From contig JASBSB010000007.1 in NCBI GenBank assembly GCA_030149205.1, positions 270,001 to 302,000 on the forward strand: 32,000 bases of DNA. Direction: 5' to 3'. A program made the position numbers and the translations under genes. The stretch is from Candidatus Heimdallarchaeota archaeon (lineage in GTDB: Archaea; Asgardarchaeota; Heimdallarchaeia; Heimdallarchaeales; Kariarchaeaceae). Numbering within the stretch: the first letter of the stretch is position 1; every line of letters starts with the position of its first letter. Below the pieces are notes generated by a model that saw only the letters and a program-made list of their open reading frames with translations, was not told where the DNA came from and made no database searches. This document shows positions 2,143-28,071 of the stretch, piece by piece.

Positions 2143-3333
2143 ATGCAAAAAAGAAAGTTTATTTACCTTACCTCCTTGTTAGCGTTTCTGATAGTTTCAG
2201 GTGCATATGGTGCAATTAACCACACCACACCCAATATGTCTACAAGTCAAACTGGGACACCAGTAAAACACTATTATGTTTACCAAAAAACCTTTGCAAA
2301 CAATACTTTGGATGGAAAAGTTACCCCTGGTGAATATCCTAATGTTTTCAATGTTTCTGCAGTTGGAGGCTATCAGTTCGCACAAGTCTATATGGTTCAT
2401 GATGCAACAAGATTGAAAGTCGCTGTAGTGGCCAAGCTTGCTGGTTGGGTGGGCTTCGGATTAAGCGAAAATGGAATGATAAATGCAACAATATTTGAAA
2501 CTGGGGTTGTTGGTTCTAATACTTCCAGCCCAGGACTCTTCAAAGGTCTCTTAACCGGAAATGTGTTTCCTGGATTTGTTAGGAGCCTTTCAAACGCAGA
2601 AATCAGAGGTGTTCAGGTGGGGAATAACACAACTATCGAACTTGTAATTCCTCTCAAGTCACCAGATGGTTTTTACAATATGAAGATCAATCAAACTTAT
2701 GGTTTTATTGTAGCTGGCCATAAAACGAGTGATGTGTTGGAATATCACTCCTATCATTCACAAAGGAATCTAAGATTTACTTTATTACCTGCATCACAAC
2801 CGGCTCCTGTTGACGTCAGTTTAACAGGTTTAACTGTAACAAAAGGGCTGAATGGTAGCTATGATTTTCAAGTTAGTATGAACACCCTTACCCAAAATGT
2901 TACAGTTTCATTTGTCGCAAAATCTTTTTATGGTGAATTTTTCATAGGGAGTATTGATTCAAGTGGGGGAACGATTAAATTTGCAGGTAGCATGAACTTT
3001 ACAACTTATAGTCAGGTTAAGGTATATGCAATGACTGACAATCTGGTAGGGTTCAACGCAGCTAAAAGTAACACAGTTGAGATTTCTGGATTGACTCCAC
3101 ACTTTTATGAGATTTATGTTCATCATATTGTGGAGGATCCAAATTGGAATAACACAAAAGAATTTGTCGTTAACCCTAATATGTTTCAAAATTCTGGGCA
3201 CCTCATTAGTGCAGCAATGCTTTGGACCTTTGTGTTAGTTGTTACATTAGTACTTTGGGAGTATGGTGCAGCAGTAATGAAACTAATTTATCTGCACATT
3301 TTAGGAAATGAAGAGGAGTTGAAGAAAGAATGA
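2143..3333 (+). CDS. Exported, C-terminally anchored DOMON-domain protein (predicted Met/His heme b binder)
   Basis: The ATG at 2143 follows an AGGTG SD-like element and opens a Sec-type signal peptide (MQKRKFIYLTSLLAFLIVSGAYGA). DOMON motif 'GWVGFGLSENGM' with a downstream 'YHSYH'. C-terminal TM helix. The stop overlaps the next start (ATGA, 3330-3333). Confidence 0.75.
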   Translation: MQKRKFIYLTSLLAFLIVSGAYGAINHTTPNMSTSQTGTPVKHYYVYQKTFANNTLDGKVTPGEYPNVFNVSAVGGYQFAQVYMVHDATRLKVAVVAKLAGWVGFGLSENGMINATIFETGVVGSNTSSPGLFKGLLTGNVFPGFVRSLSNAEIRGVQVGNNTTIELVIPLKSPDGFYNMKINQTYGFIVAGHKTSDVLEYHSYHSQRNLRFTLLPASQPAPVDVSLTGLTVTKGLNGSYDFQVSMNTLTQNVTVSFVAKSFYGEFFIGSIDSSGGTIKFAGSMNFTTYSQVKVYAMTDNLVGFNAAKSNTVEISGLTPHFYEIYVHHIVEDPNWNNTKEFVVNPNMFQNSGHLISAAMLWTFVLVVTLVLWEYGAAVMKLIYLHILGNEEELKKE

Positions 3334-4313
3334 GTAAGGCAAGTTCATTTGTAAAATGGTCTGAAAACCTGACTGTAAAACGAAGAACGTTTATTAAAGG
3401 TCTTGCGTTTGTGGGGGCATCTGCTTATGCAATTGCACCACTCCCAAGACGAGACGGGTTTATCTTTAAAAACAGATTACCTCAAGGAATTACGGTTGAT
3501 CACTCCCGAGATTATAGCAGACGTTATGATAAATGGAGAATACCAAACACAGTATGGGGAATGGTGATTGACCTGGCAAAATGTGATGGGTGTAATGATT
3601 TGACATCTAAGGGGAACCCTCCTAGATGTACTGCAGCCTGTCAAGAAGGGCATCACGCACCAAGTGATTACAAACAAAATAGTAAATCATACTTTGACAA
3701 TGAACATCAGACTCAAGTTCAATTAAATCAAAGAGTTCATGAATATATCAAGGTATTTAAGGTTCAAGACAATCCATGGTCAAACTCTTACTTCTTCCCA
3801 AGACCATGTCAACAGTGTATCGACCCACCTTGTGTTCATGTTTGTCCAGTTCAGGCAGCTTGGCAAAGAACTGGAGATAGGCTCACATTGGTTGATCAAG
3901 AACGATGTATTGGTTGTCGACTATGTATGGCTGGGTGTCCCTATGAGGTAAGATTTTTCCATTGGGAAGATAACTACAAATTTTATGATAGTAATGGGAA
4001 ACCTTTAGGTCCAGATTCACGAATAGTCAAAGACTTTGAGATGCAAATGCCCTTCGAGATTGTCAAACAAAAAGGAGTAATTGCAAAATGTGACTTCTGT
4101 GGAAACCAATTCTTAGGAAAATTACCACATTGTGTGGCTTCTTGTCACAAGGGTGCTCTATATTTTGGAAATCTCTTGGAGAACTCAGTCACAAACAATA
4201 TGGGTGAAACAATTCTAGTCGACAAAACCATTCAAGAAAGGAAAGGTTTTAGATGGAAAGAAGAAGAAGGAACAAGACCCAGGGTATTTTATCTCCCTGC
4301 AAATACTAAGTAG
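3330..4313 (+). CDS. Tat-exported multi-[4Fe-4S] ferredoxin subunit (NrfC/DsrO/ActB2 family)
   Basis: Twin-arginine motif 'KRRTFIKG'. Cys motifs CDGC-x11-CTAAC, CQQCIDPPCVHVCP, CIGCRLCMAGCPY and CDFC...CVASC. 'WGMVIDLAKC' is typical of this family. Confidence 0.92.
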   Translation: MSKASSFVKWSENLTVKRRTFIKGLAFVGASAYAIAPLPRRDGFIFKNRLPQGITVDHSRDYSRRYDKWRIPNTVWGMVIDLAKCDGCNDLTSKGNPPRCTAACQEGHHAPSDYKQNSKSYFDNEHQTQVQLNQRVHEYIKVFKVQDNPWSNSYFFPRPCQQCIDPPCVHVCPVQAAWQRTGDRLTLVDQERCIGCRLCMAGCPYEVRFFHWEDNYKFYDSNGKPLGPDSRIVKDFEMQMPFEIVKQKGVIAKCDFCGNQFLGKLPHCVASCHKGALYFGNLLENSVTNNMGETILVDKTIQERKGFRWKEEEGTRPRVFYLPANTK

Positions 4314-4321
4314 GTGAAATC

Positions 4322-5794
4322 ATGGCAACAGCAAACGAACATACAGATTTTAATCCAGTAAAAACCAACCTTGAACATCTTTATATCCCAAATGGCGAGG
4401 TAATGGATGAACAAGAGGTAATGAGAAGGAGAAAAATTGTTGAAAAGGCATTTTTAACCATTCGTCCAGCAGAAATACTAGCTATGCTTCCACTTATAGT
4501 CGTTATGTGGGTGGGCTTTGGACATTATGTGGCATTACAGGAGATAGTAGGTCTAAAAGTCACAGCTTTATCTCAAAAAGTATTTTGGGGTATGTATATC
4601 ACAAACTTTGTTTTTTGGATCGGTGTATCGCATGTGGGAATGCTTATATCTGCAGTAATGAGGATATTAAATGCTAAGTTCAGAACTCCAATCACAAGAC
4701 TTGCAGAAGAAGTCACCATTGTATCATTATTAATGGGTGCTGGTTCGGTTCTGATCGATATGGGAAGGTTAGACCGTGCATTACATATTGCGTGGTATGC
4801 AAACATGACTTCCCCCTTAGTTTGGGATGTCATATCAATCAGTTTCTATTTAACTGGTAGTTTAATATTTTTCTACACCCCAATAATTCCGGACTTTGCT
4901 TATTACAGAGATAACCTGAATCCAAAAGTTCATGGTATGAGAATAAAGATCTACAAGATTCTTGCTCTAAATTGGAGAGGAACCCAGGAACAATATGAAA
5001 TTATCGAAGACAAGATCATGTCTAGGTTAAAATGGTTTATTCTTCCAATAGCTGTTTCAGTTCACACAGTTGTTAGTTGGATTTTTGCAGTTATGTGGAG
5101 AGCAGGATGGAATTCCACTATTTTTGGACCATATTTTGTCTCAGGTGCAATCTATTCTGGAACTTCTGCTTTAGTAACCATACTTGCATTGGTAACTTGG
5201 TATTATGGATTTGAAGACTATATCTCCATGACTCATATTAAACTTGTAATTAAACTGTGGGTCACAGTTGATTTTGTTTATATGTACTTTACACTCAATG
5301 AAATCATAGTTCCTGCCTACAAAAGAGAAGGAAGAGAGTTTTCTGTTTTGTATCAAAAATTCTACGGGGATATGGCAACAGTTTACTGGTTTGTTATAAT
5401 TGTTGGTGCTGTCATTCCATTCTTTGTAGGAATTTGGTTATACAATATGAAAGAGAAAAACAAGAACTGGTTCTATCTCATTGCAATCATAACTAGTCTA
5501 TTAAGCAACATTGGTTCTTGGTTCGAAAGATACACAATTGTAGTACCAACACTAAGATCCTTTGTTGTATCTCCCATTGAACCATTGTATGTTTATTTAC
5601 CAATTGCAGGAGAAATCTGGATTACTCTAGCCCAAGTTGCTTTCTTTATCTTCTTCTACTGGTTCCTAAACAAGCTAATTCCTCACATACCCTTATGGGA
5701 GGTCGAACTTGAATGGGAAAAATATGGCTTAGTAAAGGGCGAAACACCAACAAGAAAGCACTTAAATTCAATGGGTTCTGATCTTAAAGAATAA
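4322..5794 (+). CDS. nrfD: NrfD/PsrC-family quinone-reactive membrane subunit, ActC/QrcD-like
   Basis: About 10 TM segments. Motifs 'WGMYITNFVFWIGVSHVG', 'RTPITRLAE', 'DMGR', 'HTVVSWIFA', 'WNSTIFGPYFVSGAIYSG' and 'WFERYTIVV'. GGTGA SD-like element just upstream of the ATG. Confidence 0.92.
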   Translation: MATANEHTDFNPVKTNLEHLYIPNGEVMDEQEVMRRRKIVEKAFLTIRPAEILAMLPLIVVMWVGFGHYVALQEIVGLKVTALSQKVFWGMYITNFVFWIGVSHVGMLISAVMRILNAKFRTPITRLAEEVTIVSLLMGAGSVLIDMGRLDRALHIAWYANMTSPLVWDVISISFYLTGSLIFFYTPIIPDFAYYRDNLNPKVHGMRIKIYKILALNWRGTQEQYEIIEDKIMSRLKWFILPIAVSVHTVVSWIFAVMWRAGWNSTIFGPYFVSGAIYSGTSALVTILALVTWYYGFEDYISMTHIKLVIKLWVTVDFVYMYFTLNEIIVPAYKREGREFSVLYQKFYGDMATVYWFVIIVGAVIPFFVGIWLYNMKEKNKNWFYLIAIITSLLSNIGSWFERYTIVVPTLRSFVVSPIEPLYVYLPIAGEIWITLAQVAFFIFFYWFLNKLIPHIPLWEVELEWEKYGLVKGETPTRKHLNSMGSDLKE

Positions 5795-23081: not shown

Positions 23082-24203
23082 TCATAAGTAACTTATTAAG
23101 ATCTCACCAGCATTAAAATTTAAACGATATTTACTCTTAAAATAATTAACAATTTCTGAAAATATGTTTTTAAGTAACTCCGACCTGTATTCACCAGAAA
23201 CTGTACTCATGTTAGTTGCCAAAGTAAAATCAATAACCTTCACCCCATCATCTGTAAGGAGTAAATTGTCCACAGAAAAATCCCTGTGGAAAATATGACA
23301 CCTTTTGAATAAATCAAAAAATACATTCAGGCTTCGGTAAAGGTAGTCCATTGGGTTTCCCAGTAGTCGTAAATCGGTCTCTCTAATCGTAGGTGCAAGT
23401 CTCCCTCTATAAAAAAGTGGCTCAAGCCATAGCACAGGTCCATTTCGTTGATAAACCTGAGGAGCTGGAATATTCTCACTATTAACAAATTTTAGCAATT
23501 TTTCCTCATGCCTTGCCAACTTTTCCGGGATATCCCATCTTGTTCTTTTTTTCTTTGTTTTGGAATATTTTTTTACTCCATTTGAATATGGGTAATAGAT
23601 CTTCAAAATTCTATTTTGATGATTGTGGGTTTCAGTTATAAAAATCTCTGCCTCCTTCCCTTTGGCGATAATCTGTGACTTGGTGATAAAACGATCTGAT
23701 TTCAACTGACTAAGAATCTGATTTGTTGTTTTCAAAGATTTGAATTCAAGCTTATTTACATTGATATTCGAGGTCTCTAGGATCTTCCACTCACCCGTAA
23801 GCCCATCTAACTTATATTTTGCACCATAGCCCCGCATGGCAAAGCGTACAAACAAGGACGCACTTTCTGTTGAGTTTGGCTTAGCATTCTTTTTCATCCC
23901 CTCAAGTTGTAACAGGTGTTGCAACGACAAAAATCTATTCTTACCACCTCGAGTAATAAGAATAAACTTCTGATTTTGTAACCCTGTCCAATGAACCTCC
24001 CCCAGGTCATCTATTACTATGTAGTCTGGCTTGAGATGTCGTATCAAATAAAAAAGCCTCTGCTTTGATATCCTTGAAAAACTAACCTCTGAATCGTAAC
24101 TACAGTTCCATAGATAAATAGAATAATATGCTCTTTTTTGGCTGGATCGTAGATTACCTGAGTAAATGTCAACCCCCATAAGCTTCTGGTCGTACATCAT
24201 CAC
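23082..24203 (-). CDS. Fusion of a COG2433 (DUF460-protein) N-terminal-like domain and a RIO-family atypical kinase
   Basis: The C-terminal half has RIO motifs 'IAKGKEAEIF', 'LKIY', 'GRLAP', 'HRDFSVDNLL' and 'VIDF'. The N-terminal half ('LMGVDI', 'RLFYLIRHLKPDYIVID', 'RGYG') resembles the N-terminus of archaeal COG2433 proteins. Confidence 0.8.
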   Translation of the reverse strand: MMMYDQKLMGVDIYSGNLRSSQKRAYYSIYLWNCSYDSEVSFSRISKQRLFYLIRHLKPDYIVIDDLGEVHWTGLQNQKFILITRGGKNRFLSLQHLLQLEGMKKNAKPNSTESASLFVRFAMRGYGAKYKLDGLTGEWKILETSNINVNKLEFKSLKTTNQILSQLKSDRFITKSQIIAKGKEAEIFITETHNHQNRILKIYYPYSNGVKKYSKTKKKRTRWDIPEKLARHEEKLLKFVNSENIPAPQVYQRNGPVLWLEPLFYRGRLAPTIRETDLRLLGNPMDYLYRSLNVFFDLFKRCHIFHRDFSVDNLLLTDDGVKVIDFTLATNMSTVSGEYRSELLKNIFSEIVNYFKSKYRLNFNAGEILISYL

Positions 24204-24393: not shown

Positions 24394-26004
24394 GTGACGG
24401 GGTTCCAATTTCCTCTTGTGGGGATTCCAGAACAAGATCGGGGAAATATAGAATACAAGCTACTGCTTAGAGATACAAACCCAGAAAGATTAGATGAATT
24501 GGCAACCCAAATGAAATTTAGACTCTTTGAAGGAGGAGGAGAAGCAATTTATATCATCGGAATACGAGATGATGGCTATCCTGAGGGGATCAGCGAAGAG
24601 GAAATGACAATATCATTGGAAACCCTACAATCAATAGCAAGAAAAATTAATGCATACACTGAGATATTACGTTCCCACGAAGATTCCGAAACTAAATTAA
24701 AAATTACCGAATTATTGGTCAGGAAGCATAAGGATCCAGAAAAGCTTCCAATGGATATTCCTGTTGTAACACTTGGAAATGTGGATAGTGGAAAATCCAC
24801 CCTGTTGGGAGTTCTACAGACTGGAAATTTAGATGATGGCAGGGGAAGTGCAAGAATCAGCATATTTAGATACAAACATGAGCTTGAATCAGGACGGACA
24901 TCCTCCATAAGTCAGGTGACAATAGGATTTAAAGTCGACGGTAAAATTGTCTCTCAGGATAAGATACATGTTCCAACAGATATGGAGATTCTCGAGGAAT
25001 CAATTAAAACTATTTCATTCTATGACCTTGCTGGCCATGAAAAATACCTTAAGACCACAATCTATGGATTGTCAACGATTAACCCAAAATTTGCATTGTT
25101 AATTGTTGCTGCGAACCAAGGGGTGTTACCCATGACTAAAGAGCATCTGGGACTCGCAGTATCCCTTAGGATACCATTAATAATAGTCATAACAAAAGAG
25201 GATATGACACCACCCCAAAAATATGAAGAGACTCTCAATTCCGTCAAAAAGATACTTCGAATACCAGGTGTCTCAAGAATCCCACTTCTAATTTACAACG
25301 AGAATGATCTCTATCTTGGAATTAATCACCTTCCAAAAGGTGACATTGTCCCCATCATCTCAGTATCTTCTGTTAAGGGAACAAACATAAATCTCTTAAC
25401 TAAATTTCTAAACTTATTACCAATAACCAAAACTCAAAAGGATAAACAAGCACTTGAGTTTGGAGCTTACATAACTGAAATTTTCTTCGTCACTGGTGTG
25501 GGGACTGTTGTATCAGTCCAGATCTACTCCGGTAGTCTTAGGGTTCAAGATTTTGTTCATCTAGGGCCATTTGAGGGTGGTATCTTCAAAAAAGTACGGG
25601 TCAAATCAATCCACTACAAAAGGGTTCCAACCAAGGAGGTGTTCAGTGGACAAACTGCCACATTTGCATTACATCAGGTAAAGAGAGAAGAAGTGCGAAA
25701 AGGAATGGTTCTACTTGGGATGAATATGAATCTAGGTGCGAGTAATGGATTTGTTGGAGAAATTTATATTCTATACCATTCAACAACAATAAAGCAGGGG
25801 TATGCTCCTGTGGTTCACACCCAATCAATACAACAATCTGCAAAGATTGTAAAGATGAACAAAAGTGTTCTAAGGACTGGAGATCGCGCAAAGGTAACCT
25901 TTGAGTTTATGTACAGACCCGAATTCATTTCTATTGGACAAAAGTTTTTGATTAGAGAGGGTAAAACAAAGGGGATAGGTCAAATAATCAAACTTATTCC
26001 ATAA
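24394..26004 (+). CDS. GTPBP1/GTPBP2-family translational GTPase
   Basis: N-domain 'GNIEYKL...ATQMKFRLFEGGGEAIYIIG'. G1 'GNVDSGKST', family motif 'DDGRGSAR...HELESGRTSS', G3 'DLAGHEKY', G4 'TKED'. EF-Tu-like beta-barrels with 'FLIREGKTKGIG'. GTG start with GAGGA 9 nt upstream. Confidence 0.95.
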   Translation: MTGFQFPLVGIPEQDRGNIEYKLLLRDTNPERLDELATQMKFRLFEGGGEAIYIIGIRDDGYPEGISEEEMTISLETLQSIARKINAYTEILRSHEDSETKLKITELLVRKHKDPEKLPMDIPVVTLGNVDSGKSTLLGVLQTGNLDDGRGSARISIFRYKHELESGRTSSISQVTIGFKVDGKIVSQDKIHVPTDMEILEESIKTISFYDLAGHEKYLKTTIYGLSTINPKFALLIVAANQGVLPMTKEHLGLAVSLRIPLIIVITKEDMTPPQKYEETLNSVKKILRIPGVSRIPLLIYNENDLYLGINHLPKGDIVPIISVSSVKGTNINLLTKFLNLLPITKTQKDKQALEFGAYITEIFFVTGVGTVVSVQIYSGSLRVQDFVHLGPFEGGIFKKVRVKSIHYKRVPTKEVFSGQTATFALHQVKREEVRKGMVLLGMNMNLGASNGFVGEIYILYHSTTIKQGYAPVVHTQSIQQSAKIVKMNKSVLRTGDRAKVTFEFMYRPEFISIGQKFLIREGKTKGIGQIIKLIP

Positions 26005-26075: not shown

Positions 26076-26471
26076 ATGTCTGAATATATCCAAAAAAATG
26101 CAAAGAACATTATCTTTGATATTAACGAAAGCAAAGAAAACAGGATACAAGCAAGTTTTGCTTTGATGAACGATGGGAGTGAAGAAGCTGTCCACCTCTT
26201 GGTAAATGCACTGTTTACAGAACCCAGTCCTATTGTAAGACATGAAATTGCATTCTCATTGGGTGAAACAGCCTCACCACAGGCTGTCCCCAATCTGATA
26301 AAGGCAATGGAGGAAGACGAAAATATTTTTGTTATCCATGAAGCAGCGTTAGCCCTTGCCACGCTAGGCGATAAACGTGCTGAAGAACCAATTAGAAAAC
26401 TCCTAACACACCCAAACCCTGATGTGGCTGAAAGTGCAGAGATTGCATTGCAACGCTTATTATCCTCATAA
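26076..26471 (+). CDS. HEAT-repeat protein with two His-Glu motifs; half-length deoxyhypusine hydroxylase-like
   Basis: 131 aa. 'VRHEIAFSLG' (H56-E57), 'VIHEAALAL' (H88-E89) and terminal 'VAESAEIALQRL' are collinear with one half of eukaryotic DOHH as I recall it. Confidence 0.8.
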   Translation: MSEYIQKNAKNIIFDINESKENRIQASFALMNDGSEEAVHLLVNALFTEPSPIVRHEIAFSLGETASPQAVPNLIKAMEEDENIFVIHEAALALATLGDKRAEEPIRKLLTHPNPDVAESAEIALQRLLSS

Positions 26472-27342: not shown

Positions 27343-28071
27343 ATGGTTCAACAATCCGTCTATACTGAGGATGAAATCATCGACCTGATTAATAGCGATG
27401 ATATGGAAGACAACACCATAGGAGCGAGAAATCTATGGACTTTCTGGGAACAGTGGGAGAACAAAGAAAAACTGATATCTACTGGTGACAGGTTATTCAA
27501 GCTACTTGATGAGCTAAAAGATGAAACCAAAACAACAGCAAACATCAACATGAGACCAATATGGCATTACCTTCTTGCATTGGGATCTATTCAGTATATG
27601 CCTGCTATCCCACTCATTAAATCATTGCTTCTAAATAATGAGGTCGTCGAGAATGTGCGCGGGTTTGCAGCTGAGACACTCACCAGGTATCCTCCTGGGG
27701 TGGTAGATGATGAACTAGAAGAGTCCCTTTGGACACTCGCTCAAAAAGACCCCTCGCTTCCAGTACGTGTTAACTCGTTCAGAGCATTAGGTCATAGATA
27801 TGCAGAAACAAAAGACGCTGAGGTGGCAAAAAAACTCTGGAAAGCCATGAAAAAACAACAAAATTCAGCAATTAAATCCACAATTATTGCAATGATTGGT
27901 CAGGTAGGAAGTAAGGTCGTAGTACCAGATCTCATTCATATGCTCATAACAAGAAGAACAGGTGCGATGAAAAATGATGCTGGGCTTGCACTTGATATGA
28001 TTGCAAAGATCAATGGAATGGACAATAGAGATGATCTTATTAAATCAATGGCAGATATAGAGATGGAGTAA
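27343..28071 (+). CDS. HEAT (PBS-lyase-like) repeat protein
   Basis: Repeats such as 'ENVRGFAAETL', 'LPVRVNSFRALG', 'AIKSTIIAMIGQVG' and 'AMKNDAGLAL'. No His-Glu motifs. Confidence 0.8.
   Translation: MVQQSVYTEDEIIDLINSDDMEDNTIGARNLWTFWEQWENKEKLISTGDRLFKLLDELKDETKTTANINMRPIWHYLLALGSIQYMPAIPLIKSLLLNNEVVENVRGFAAETLTRYPPGVVDDELEESLWTLAQKDPSLPVRVNSFRALGHRYAETKDAEVAKKLWKAMKKQQNSAIKSTIIAMIGQVGSKVVVPDLIHMLITRRTGAMKNDAGLALDMIAKINGMDNRDDLIKSMADIEME

Follow-up and report, generated by a model that had tools for sequence, protein, structure and literature searches.

A half-size deoxyhypusine hydroxylase-like protein in a Heimdallarchaeota genome, a candidate homodimeric counterpart of the two-lobed eukaryotic enzyme

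Which enzyme completes the formation of hypusine in archaea, and could the two-lobed eukaryotic deoxyhypusine hydroxylase (DOHH) have started from a protein of half its size? Both questions are raised by a gene for a protein of 131 amino acids (aa), folded into four HEAT-like helical hairpins according to prediction, in the genome of a Candidatus Heimdallarchaeota archaeon of the family Kariarchaeaceae, whose closest relatives bear the names Candidatus Heimdallarchaeota, Kariarchaeaceae and Kariarchaeota. The gene is found at positions 26076..26471 (+ strand, ATG start, end including the stop codon) of a stretch of 32,000 nucleotides, called the window in the following, which represents 270001-302000 on contig C8 of the 3.3-Mb genome with its 12 contigs. 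Hypusine has been known in some archaea since the early 1990s. Publications from 2012 to 2021 state that an archaeal DOHH orthologue is not known, though several archaea contain hypusine (PMC3306375, PMC5178350, PMC6105217, PMC7773846, PMC8153317), and in the literature that we searched by full text, neither a half-size nor an archaeal DOHH was described.

We consider it rather likely that the protein is one lobe of a DOHH-type oxygenase, which acts as a homodimeric di-iron hydroxylase of aIF5A in its deoxyhypusine form. Two identical chains would pack face to face and each of them would give two His-Glu pairs, such that the dimer would rebuild the di-iron centre that is formed between the N and C lobes in eukaryotic DOHH. 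Using O2, the dimer would hydroxylate the deoxyhypusine placed on a lysine of aIF5A by deoxyhypusine synthase, which would result in hypusine. The predicted target in the aIF5A of this genome is K39 in the loop SKAGKHGHAK, as suggested by alignment to the human loop. For the protein itself we infer iron binding, the existence of the dimer in solution and the substrate.

The open reading frame (ORF) and its translation agree with the original prediction, which had described a 131-aa HEAT protein with two His-Glu motifs. The first motif, H56-E57, is encoded at 26241..26246 (+; H56 = CAT 26241-26243, E57 = GAA 26244-26246), the second, H88-E89, at 26337..26342 (+; H88 = CAT 26337-26339, E89 = GAA 26340-26342), and the C-terminus reads ...DVAESAEIALQRLLSS as predicted. 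A second copy of the gene was not found in a search of the genome. Purifying selection acts on the gene inside the genus, with pN values of 0.12-0.15 compared to pS values of 0.77-0.88, the synonymous sites being saturated.

In Pfam, the protein matches HEAT_2 (PF13646; 1.4e-26, 93 bits at a cut-off of 27.7) and HEAT_PBS (PF03130; 2.9e-14, 52.4 bits at a cut-off of 20.9), which indicates membership at the level of the superfamily and is silent on function. A DOHH-specific model exists neither in Pfam nor in NCBIfam, and only general HEAT models were matched there. Among natural proteins with solved structures, the best match in a phmmer search was human DOHH (4d4z; E 1.4e-22, query residues 14-128 against chain residues 20-134), in one continuous stretch that spans the whole first lobe; the designed alphaRep proteins outscored DOHH only through bits summed over many repeats. 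Moreover, a named insect DOHH (P0347) showed 36% identity to the protein in each of its lobes by BLASTP (E 1e-19 and 1e-18), and the His-Glu pairs of both proteins fall in register. H56-E57 align with H56-E57 and H207-E208 of human DOHH, and H88-E89 with H89-E90 and H240-E241. The AlphaFold2 monomer model (predicted local distance difference test, pLDDT, 97.8) consists of 8 helices forming the four hairpins. Where DOHH is recognised by eight HEAT repeats in two symmetric lobes and four His-Glu motifs per polypeptide, the archaeal protein thus has four hairpins and two motifs.

The His-Glu signature was analysed in 131 half-size proteins and in 180 lobes of two-lobed proteins, which were cut with the family profile. 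Among the half-size proteins, H56 is present in 130/131 and E57, G63, H88 and E89 in 131/131, while each of H56, E57, H88 and E89 is retained in 179-180 of the 180 lobes of two-lobed proteins and G63 in all 180. Also the last helix is conserved in the half-size set (E119 in 130/131, E122 in 126/131, R127 in 131/131); it is encoded by codons 119-127 (ESAEIALQR; 26430..26456, +) and provides a large share of the predicted dimer interface. As a control, we used 774 four-repeat windows, taken from 141 long but ordinary HEAT-array proteins with a match to this family profile: 5 of the windows have a His-Glu pair at the first site, 6 have one at the second, and a single window has both. A lack of conservation of the pairs had been named with the original prediction as the kind of result that would speak against it; in fact they are near-invariant.

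The residues conserved in this way are those to which roles are assigned in DOHH. The invariant glycine six residues past the first His-Glu pair, which the original DOHH paper is said to have numbered G63, is likewise G63 in the archaeal protein (26262..26264, +). This glycine has been tied to substrate binding by mutagenesis in DOHH. In the human enzyme, H56, H89, E90, H207, H240 and E241 hold the two irons, while E57, E90, E208 and E241 contact the deoxyhypusine side chain together with two glycines, which are given as G65/G214 (PMC9117371). Both the iron ligands and the glycine of the substrate contact are present; together with the matches to 4d4z and the insect enzyme, this upholds the proposed homology to one DOHH lobe, and the alignments place the half-size gene in the DOHH lineage as a genuine, conserved member with a single lobe.

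Relatives in which two such lobes are joined exist within the same family. These Kariarchaeaceae/Heimdallarchaeota proteins comprise 244-265 aa as called (open frames of 256-300 aa) and carry four invariant His-Glu pairs; examples are P0126, P0173, P0308 and P0310, larger sets are P0121-P0146 and P0158-P0192, and the loci L007-L012 are located in the genomes G001-G005 and G008. The window's protein aligns with their C lobe, reaching at most 61% identity over the lobe columns, and its mean identity is 52% to the C lobes compared to 44% to the N lobes. Nanoarchaeota/Nanoarchaeia have another two-lobed group, with proteins of 270-301 aa (P0288, P0317-P0343). The predicted structure of P0126 (pLDDT 96) could be superposed on 4d4z over its full length (template modelling score, TM, 0.83/0.77; 282 columns), whereas continuous HEAT solenoids reached at most 0.45. 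Hence, the model suggests that P0126 has the arrangement of two facing lobes specific for DOHH.

The homodimer that had been proposed for the half-size protein is likewise obtained in complex prediction. When two chains were modelled together with two iron ions, the interface score ipSAE (interaction prediction score from aligned errors) was 0.92, compared to 0.01 for the best of three controls; in a benchmark, the mark for this score was reached by 20/30 proteins solved as one-chain pairs and by 1/23 proteins solved as single chains. The dimer runs share at least 95% of their contacts with a partner pLDDT of at least 96, and the predicted interface is symmetric and involves the turns of the hairpins as well as the last helix (residues 19-24, 51-54, 83, 85, 88, 116, 119-120, 122-123, 126-127 and 130, H88 among them). 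Such a score may reflect the likeness to solved two-lobed DOHH, and it is to be read as an indication of likeness rather than of binding. The fused forms and the separate lobe duplications in evolution provide a second, independent argument for a two-lobed working unit, and we assume that two chains probably pair up.

The evolutionary argument is based on an IQ-TREE phylogeny of 105 lobes (125 columns). In this tree, the N and C lobes of eukaryotes form one clade (support 100/99), the N and C lobes of Nanoarchaeota another one (90/69), and the Heimdall group is the third clade (98/89). A single ancient duplication common to all two-lobed forms was rejected, because the constraint of all N lobes into one group costs 98.6 log-likelihood units (approximately unbiased, AU, test, p 4.6e-7). 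Furthermore, lobes within one protein are 37-40% identical compared to 26-33% between the groups, whichever lobes are paired. Judged from the tree, lobe duplication and fusion took place separately in eukaryotes and in the Heimdall group, with Nanoarchaeota as a probable third case. Repeated duplication of this kind is expected if the working unit is two-lobed and a single lobe works as a dimer. That eukaryotic DOHH is an internal duplication had been part of the original prediction and is borne out by its N and C lobes being each other's nearest relatives, which implies a half-size precursor of the eukaryotic enzyme. The source of this precursor is another matter. The free tree joins eukaryotes to the two-lobed group of Nanoarchaeota, the constraint that unites eukaryotes with the Heimdall group is not rejected (AU p 0.22), and a specific descent of DOHH from Heimdall archaea to eukaryotes is neither shown nor excluded by these lobe sequences.

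It is a different question whether the gene in the window is itself a remnant of the time before the duplication. In the sample of 12 genomes from its family (f1), the half-size gene is confined to the window's own genus (g1), where it is present in 3/4 genomes including that of the window, and the fused gene is found in the genera g2, g3, g4 and g6. Matches in g5 were rejected as DOHH-like, as they represent ordinary HEAT proteins without His-Glu. In the families f4 and f6 of the same class, the half-size form is the only one. A tree of RpoB (1109 columns) resolves f1 as ((g6, g1) 100/99, (g2, g4, (g3, g5)) 98/98). As the sister genus of g1 carries the fused gene, and as all N lobes in the family fall into one clade (100/99), indicative of a single fusion, the distribution points to a loss of the N lobe in g1. 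Besides this, the RpoB of family f4 (L102-L105; G044:C165, G045:C216) shows a peculiarity of its own: it is a single open frame of approximately 1625 aa in which about 1.5 kb extra separate the part matching residues 22-481 of the RpoB of the window's genome from the part matching residues 475-1128. The extra sequence has the look of an intein-type insertion.

The strongest alternative to an ancestral gene therefore keeps the function and changes the history: the protein would be a secondarily un-fused C lobe, which returned to the homodimer after the N lobe was lost in g1, and no pre-duplication relic. We give this explanation only slightly less than an even chance. In addition to the RpoB tree and the single clade of N lobes, it is favoured by the closeness of the protein to the C lobes of the fused proteins, noted above, and by its place in the lobe tree as sister to all of these (97/93); a constraint that groups g1 with the C lobes of g6 is not rejected either (AU p 0.116). 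However, g1 is left out of a clade that unites the C lobes of every fused gene (97/91), and the outgroup families f4 and f6, with their half-size form only, lie outside in the lobe tree, the N lobes being outermost; N and C lobes of the Heimdall group as one clade are not rejected (AU p 0.33). A trace of the N lobe was not found upstream of the half-size gene in three g1 genomes, the best match having an E value of 0.039 in a tiny search space. It must also be mentioned that the species tree is based on a single gene, for which the g6 sequence is partial (681 aa), and that the sorting of two ancestral paralogues or an intergeneric transfer of the fused gene would fit as well. Taken together, retention of the ancestral state and loss of the N lobe in g1 appear about equally likely. 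Of the claim that the gene encodes a pre-duplication DOHH, the part remains that the eukaryotic enzyme came from a half-size form, whereas the g1 gene itself may have lost an N lobe, as the RpoB tree and the fused sister genera suggest. Hence, the term 'pre-duplication ancestor' is suitable for the entire half-size grade, and it is not secure for the g1 gene.

Independent of its history, the proposed homodimeric hydroxylase needs a substrate, a preceding enzyme and oxygen. Co-occurrence with dhs and aerobic metabolism had been listed among the checks of the original prediction, and deoxyhypusine synthase, aIF5A and genes for oxygen respiration are all found in the genome. It contains one dhs gene, which encodes deoxyhypusine synthase (8.5e-87; contig C9, 12223-13089), and one aIF5A gene (143 residues; L002 1456-1887, -, contig C2). 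The aIF5A loop SKAGKHGHAK, within the stretch TSSKAGKHGHAKV, is one that we take to be nearly identical to the eukaryotic hypusine loop. Three genes for COX1, the haem-copper oxidase subunit I, exceed the cut-off.

In a class-level survey of the gene and COX1 with 83 genomes, COX1 was detected in 10/11 genomes of f1, in 2/3 genomes of f4, which are the same two that carry the half-size gene, and in 2/2 genomes of f6. The families f2, f3 (31 genomes) and f7 have neither a DOHH-like gene nor COX1. This distribution fits an oxygen-dependent enzyme. Named relatives outside Asgard are found in Pacearchaeota, Woesearchaeota and Nanoarchaeia, and weaker ones in Bathyarchaeia and Marsarchaeota. The DPANN archaea with half-size proteins have tiny genomes and are not known to possess a respiratory chain. 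In all five DPANN genomes tested that carry the half-size gene (0.5-1 Mb), dhs is present.

Nevertheless, several observations weigh against an assignment as the archaeal DOHH. Strong matches are rare and patchy, since they were obtained in 12/400 Asgard genomes, all of them in the families f1, f4 and f6. The family f5 has COX1 in approximately 9/22 genomes and the DOHH-like gene in none, and the co-occurrence with the oxidase rests on few independent lineages. Genes for the proposed pathway are not linked to the half-size gene: dhs and aIF5A sit on other contigs, the oxidase genes are not nearby either, and among 57 related loci aIF5A lies within 4 kb of the gene in only one, with no linkage to dhs or aIF5A overall. 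In the fold search, the monomer model matched DOHH with TM values of 0.86-0.87, and the alphaRep designs were not separated from DOHH, so that the case rests on the sequence signature and the context instead of the monomer fold. Moreover, iron binding, dimer and substrate are inferred for every archaeal member. Finally, Pyrodictium occultum and Thermoproteus tenax are strict anaerobes. Hypusine has been reported in both (PMC5178350), hence an O2-dependent enzyme cannot account for all archaeal hypusine.

Some of these points would be explained if the gene encoded a DOHH-like di-iron protein with another job, either an oxygenase that uses O2 on another protein or amine, or a protein that binds oxygen or iron. 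Its separation from dhs and aIF5A would then be no surprise, nor its patchy distribution although dhs and aIF5A occur in every archaeon (PMC5178350), and the same-genus neighbours, a 4Fe-4S/NrfD pair and an aldo-keto reductase, could be taken in the same sense. We regard such another job as unlikely, because the conserved residues include the substrate contacts, i.e. the Glu of each His-Glu pair and the glycine after the first motif (PMC9117371), because the gene persists in DPANN genomes that, at 0.5-1 Mb, encode little metabolism and yet possess dhs, and because DOHH has no other known substrate (PMC9117371). An ordinary non-enzymatic scaffold of the HEAT/PBS-lyase type, in which the His-Glu pairs have no catalytic meaning, would be in line with the purely general HEAT families in Pfam and NCBIfam and with alphaRep designs that equal DOHH by summed bits and by fold, but it is highly improbable given pairs that are near-invariant in the family and occur together in one of 774 ordinary HEAT windows, DOHH as the best single-stretch match among natural solved proteins, and fused relatives predicted with the lobe arrangement of DOHH instead of a continuous solenoid.

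The immediate gene neighbourhood contributes little to the homodimeric hydroxylase. The upstream ORF (24394..26004, +) contains EF-Tu GTPase domains 1-3 according to Pfam and ends 71 bp before the ATG of the half-size gene. Distance and strand had been correctly described in the original prediction, which pointed to this translational GTPase as neighbour, but this arrangement is not retained even among genomes of the genus: with the window's neighbours as tblastn queries, no GTPase was found beside the gene in same-genus or related loci, and a functional link was therefore dismissed. The GTPase itself, an EF1A-like protein of 536 aa (24394-26004, +), has an N-terminal extension of approximately 120 residues, and with 108 bits it stays far below the cut-offs of 242-540 for EF-1alpha, SelB and aIF2-gamma and belongs to none of these. 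On the opposite strand, 23082-24203 (-) encodes a protein of 373 aa with a RIO-type kinase domain in its C-terminal half only (residues 202-361), and for its N-terminal 200 residues there is no Pfam family at E <0.001.

In same-genus loci, the half-size gene is flanked by the 4Fe-4S/NrfD pair, the aldo-keto reductase and an unknown protein of 208 aa (Pfam). The NrfD gene is directly beside it in L030 (1199-3700, with the 4Fe-4S gene preceding) and in L029 (5109-6170); the NrfD gene of the window (4322-5794, +) is located approximately 20 kb upstream, with an ORF at 3330-4313 as its own upstream neighbour. A HEAT protein of 242 aa without His-Glu is encoded 1-3 kb from the half-size gene in 3/3 genus genomes (56% identity; window 27343-28071, +; L029 1049-1774; L030 7029-7751), and its side and strand vary. 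The region is rearranged within the genus.

If all lines of evidence are combined, the half-size His-Glu HEAT protein could be the DOHH of aerobic or oxygen-exposed archaea, built from a modular lobe that became fused independently in eukaryotes, in Kariarchaeaceae and, as a probable third case, in Nanoarchaeota, and was maybe un-fused again in g1, with eukaryotic DOHH derived from a half-size archaeal gene, possibly one of the Heimdall group. As a whole, this scenario is tentative, and we would put it somewhat below even odds. It matters for several reasons. The question of hypusine hydroxylation in archaea becomes testable by means of an expressible protein of only 131 residues. The host is a member of the archaeal group nearest to eukaryotes, and the hypusine loop of its aIF5A is eukaryote-like, which links the gene to the origin of eukaryotes. 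Moreover, the fused and unfused forms within one family represent a clean case for the rise of a pseudo-symmetric enzyme from a homodimer, and the gene bears on the time when the oxygen-dependent maturation of a core translation factor began.

Compared to known systems, the half-size protein resembles the alphaRep and PBS-lyase-type HEAT proteins (3LTJ; CpcE/CpcF, 5N3U; MTH187, 1TE4) in repeat type and fold, with a monomer TM of approximately 0.8. These proteins have Arg/Ala-type residues where the half-size family has His-Glu, they are without a metal site, and they form a continuous solenoid and not two facing lobes. The half-size proteins of DPANN archaea (Pacearchaeota, Woesearchaeota and Nanoarchaeia; 125-135 aa) show the same motifs and length and 50-60% identity. 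Some of them carry the automated JGI (Joint Genome Institute) name 'deoxyhypusine monooxygenase'. They belong to another phylum and to a separate clade of the lobe tree. In the fused proteins of Kariarchaeaceae, a short linker connects a faster-evolving N lobe with the C lobe, whereas genus g1 has the single lobe only. With eukaryotic DOHH (DOHH / Lia1 / nero; EC 1.14.99.29; human 4D4Z/4D50), the archaeal protein has in common the four-hairpin HEAT lobe, the glycine after the first motif and the conserved last helix, and its His-Glu positions, 56-57 and 88-89, are close to 56-57 and 89-90 of the human enzyme. It differs by Glu at residue 64, where the sampled eukaryotic DOHH lobes have Gln, and by its length, which is half that of the eukaryotic enzyme: one chain supplies one lobe with two His-Glu pairs, and two chains would be needed for the di-iron site.

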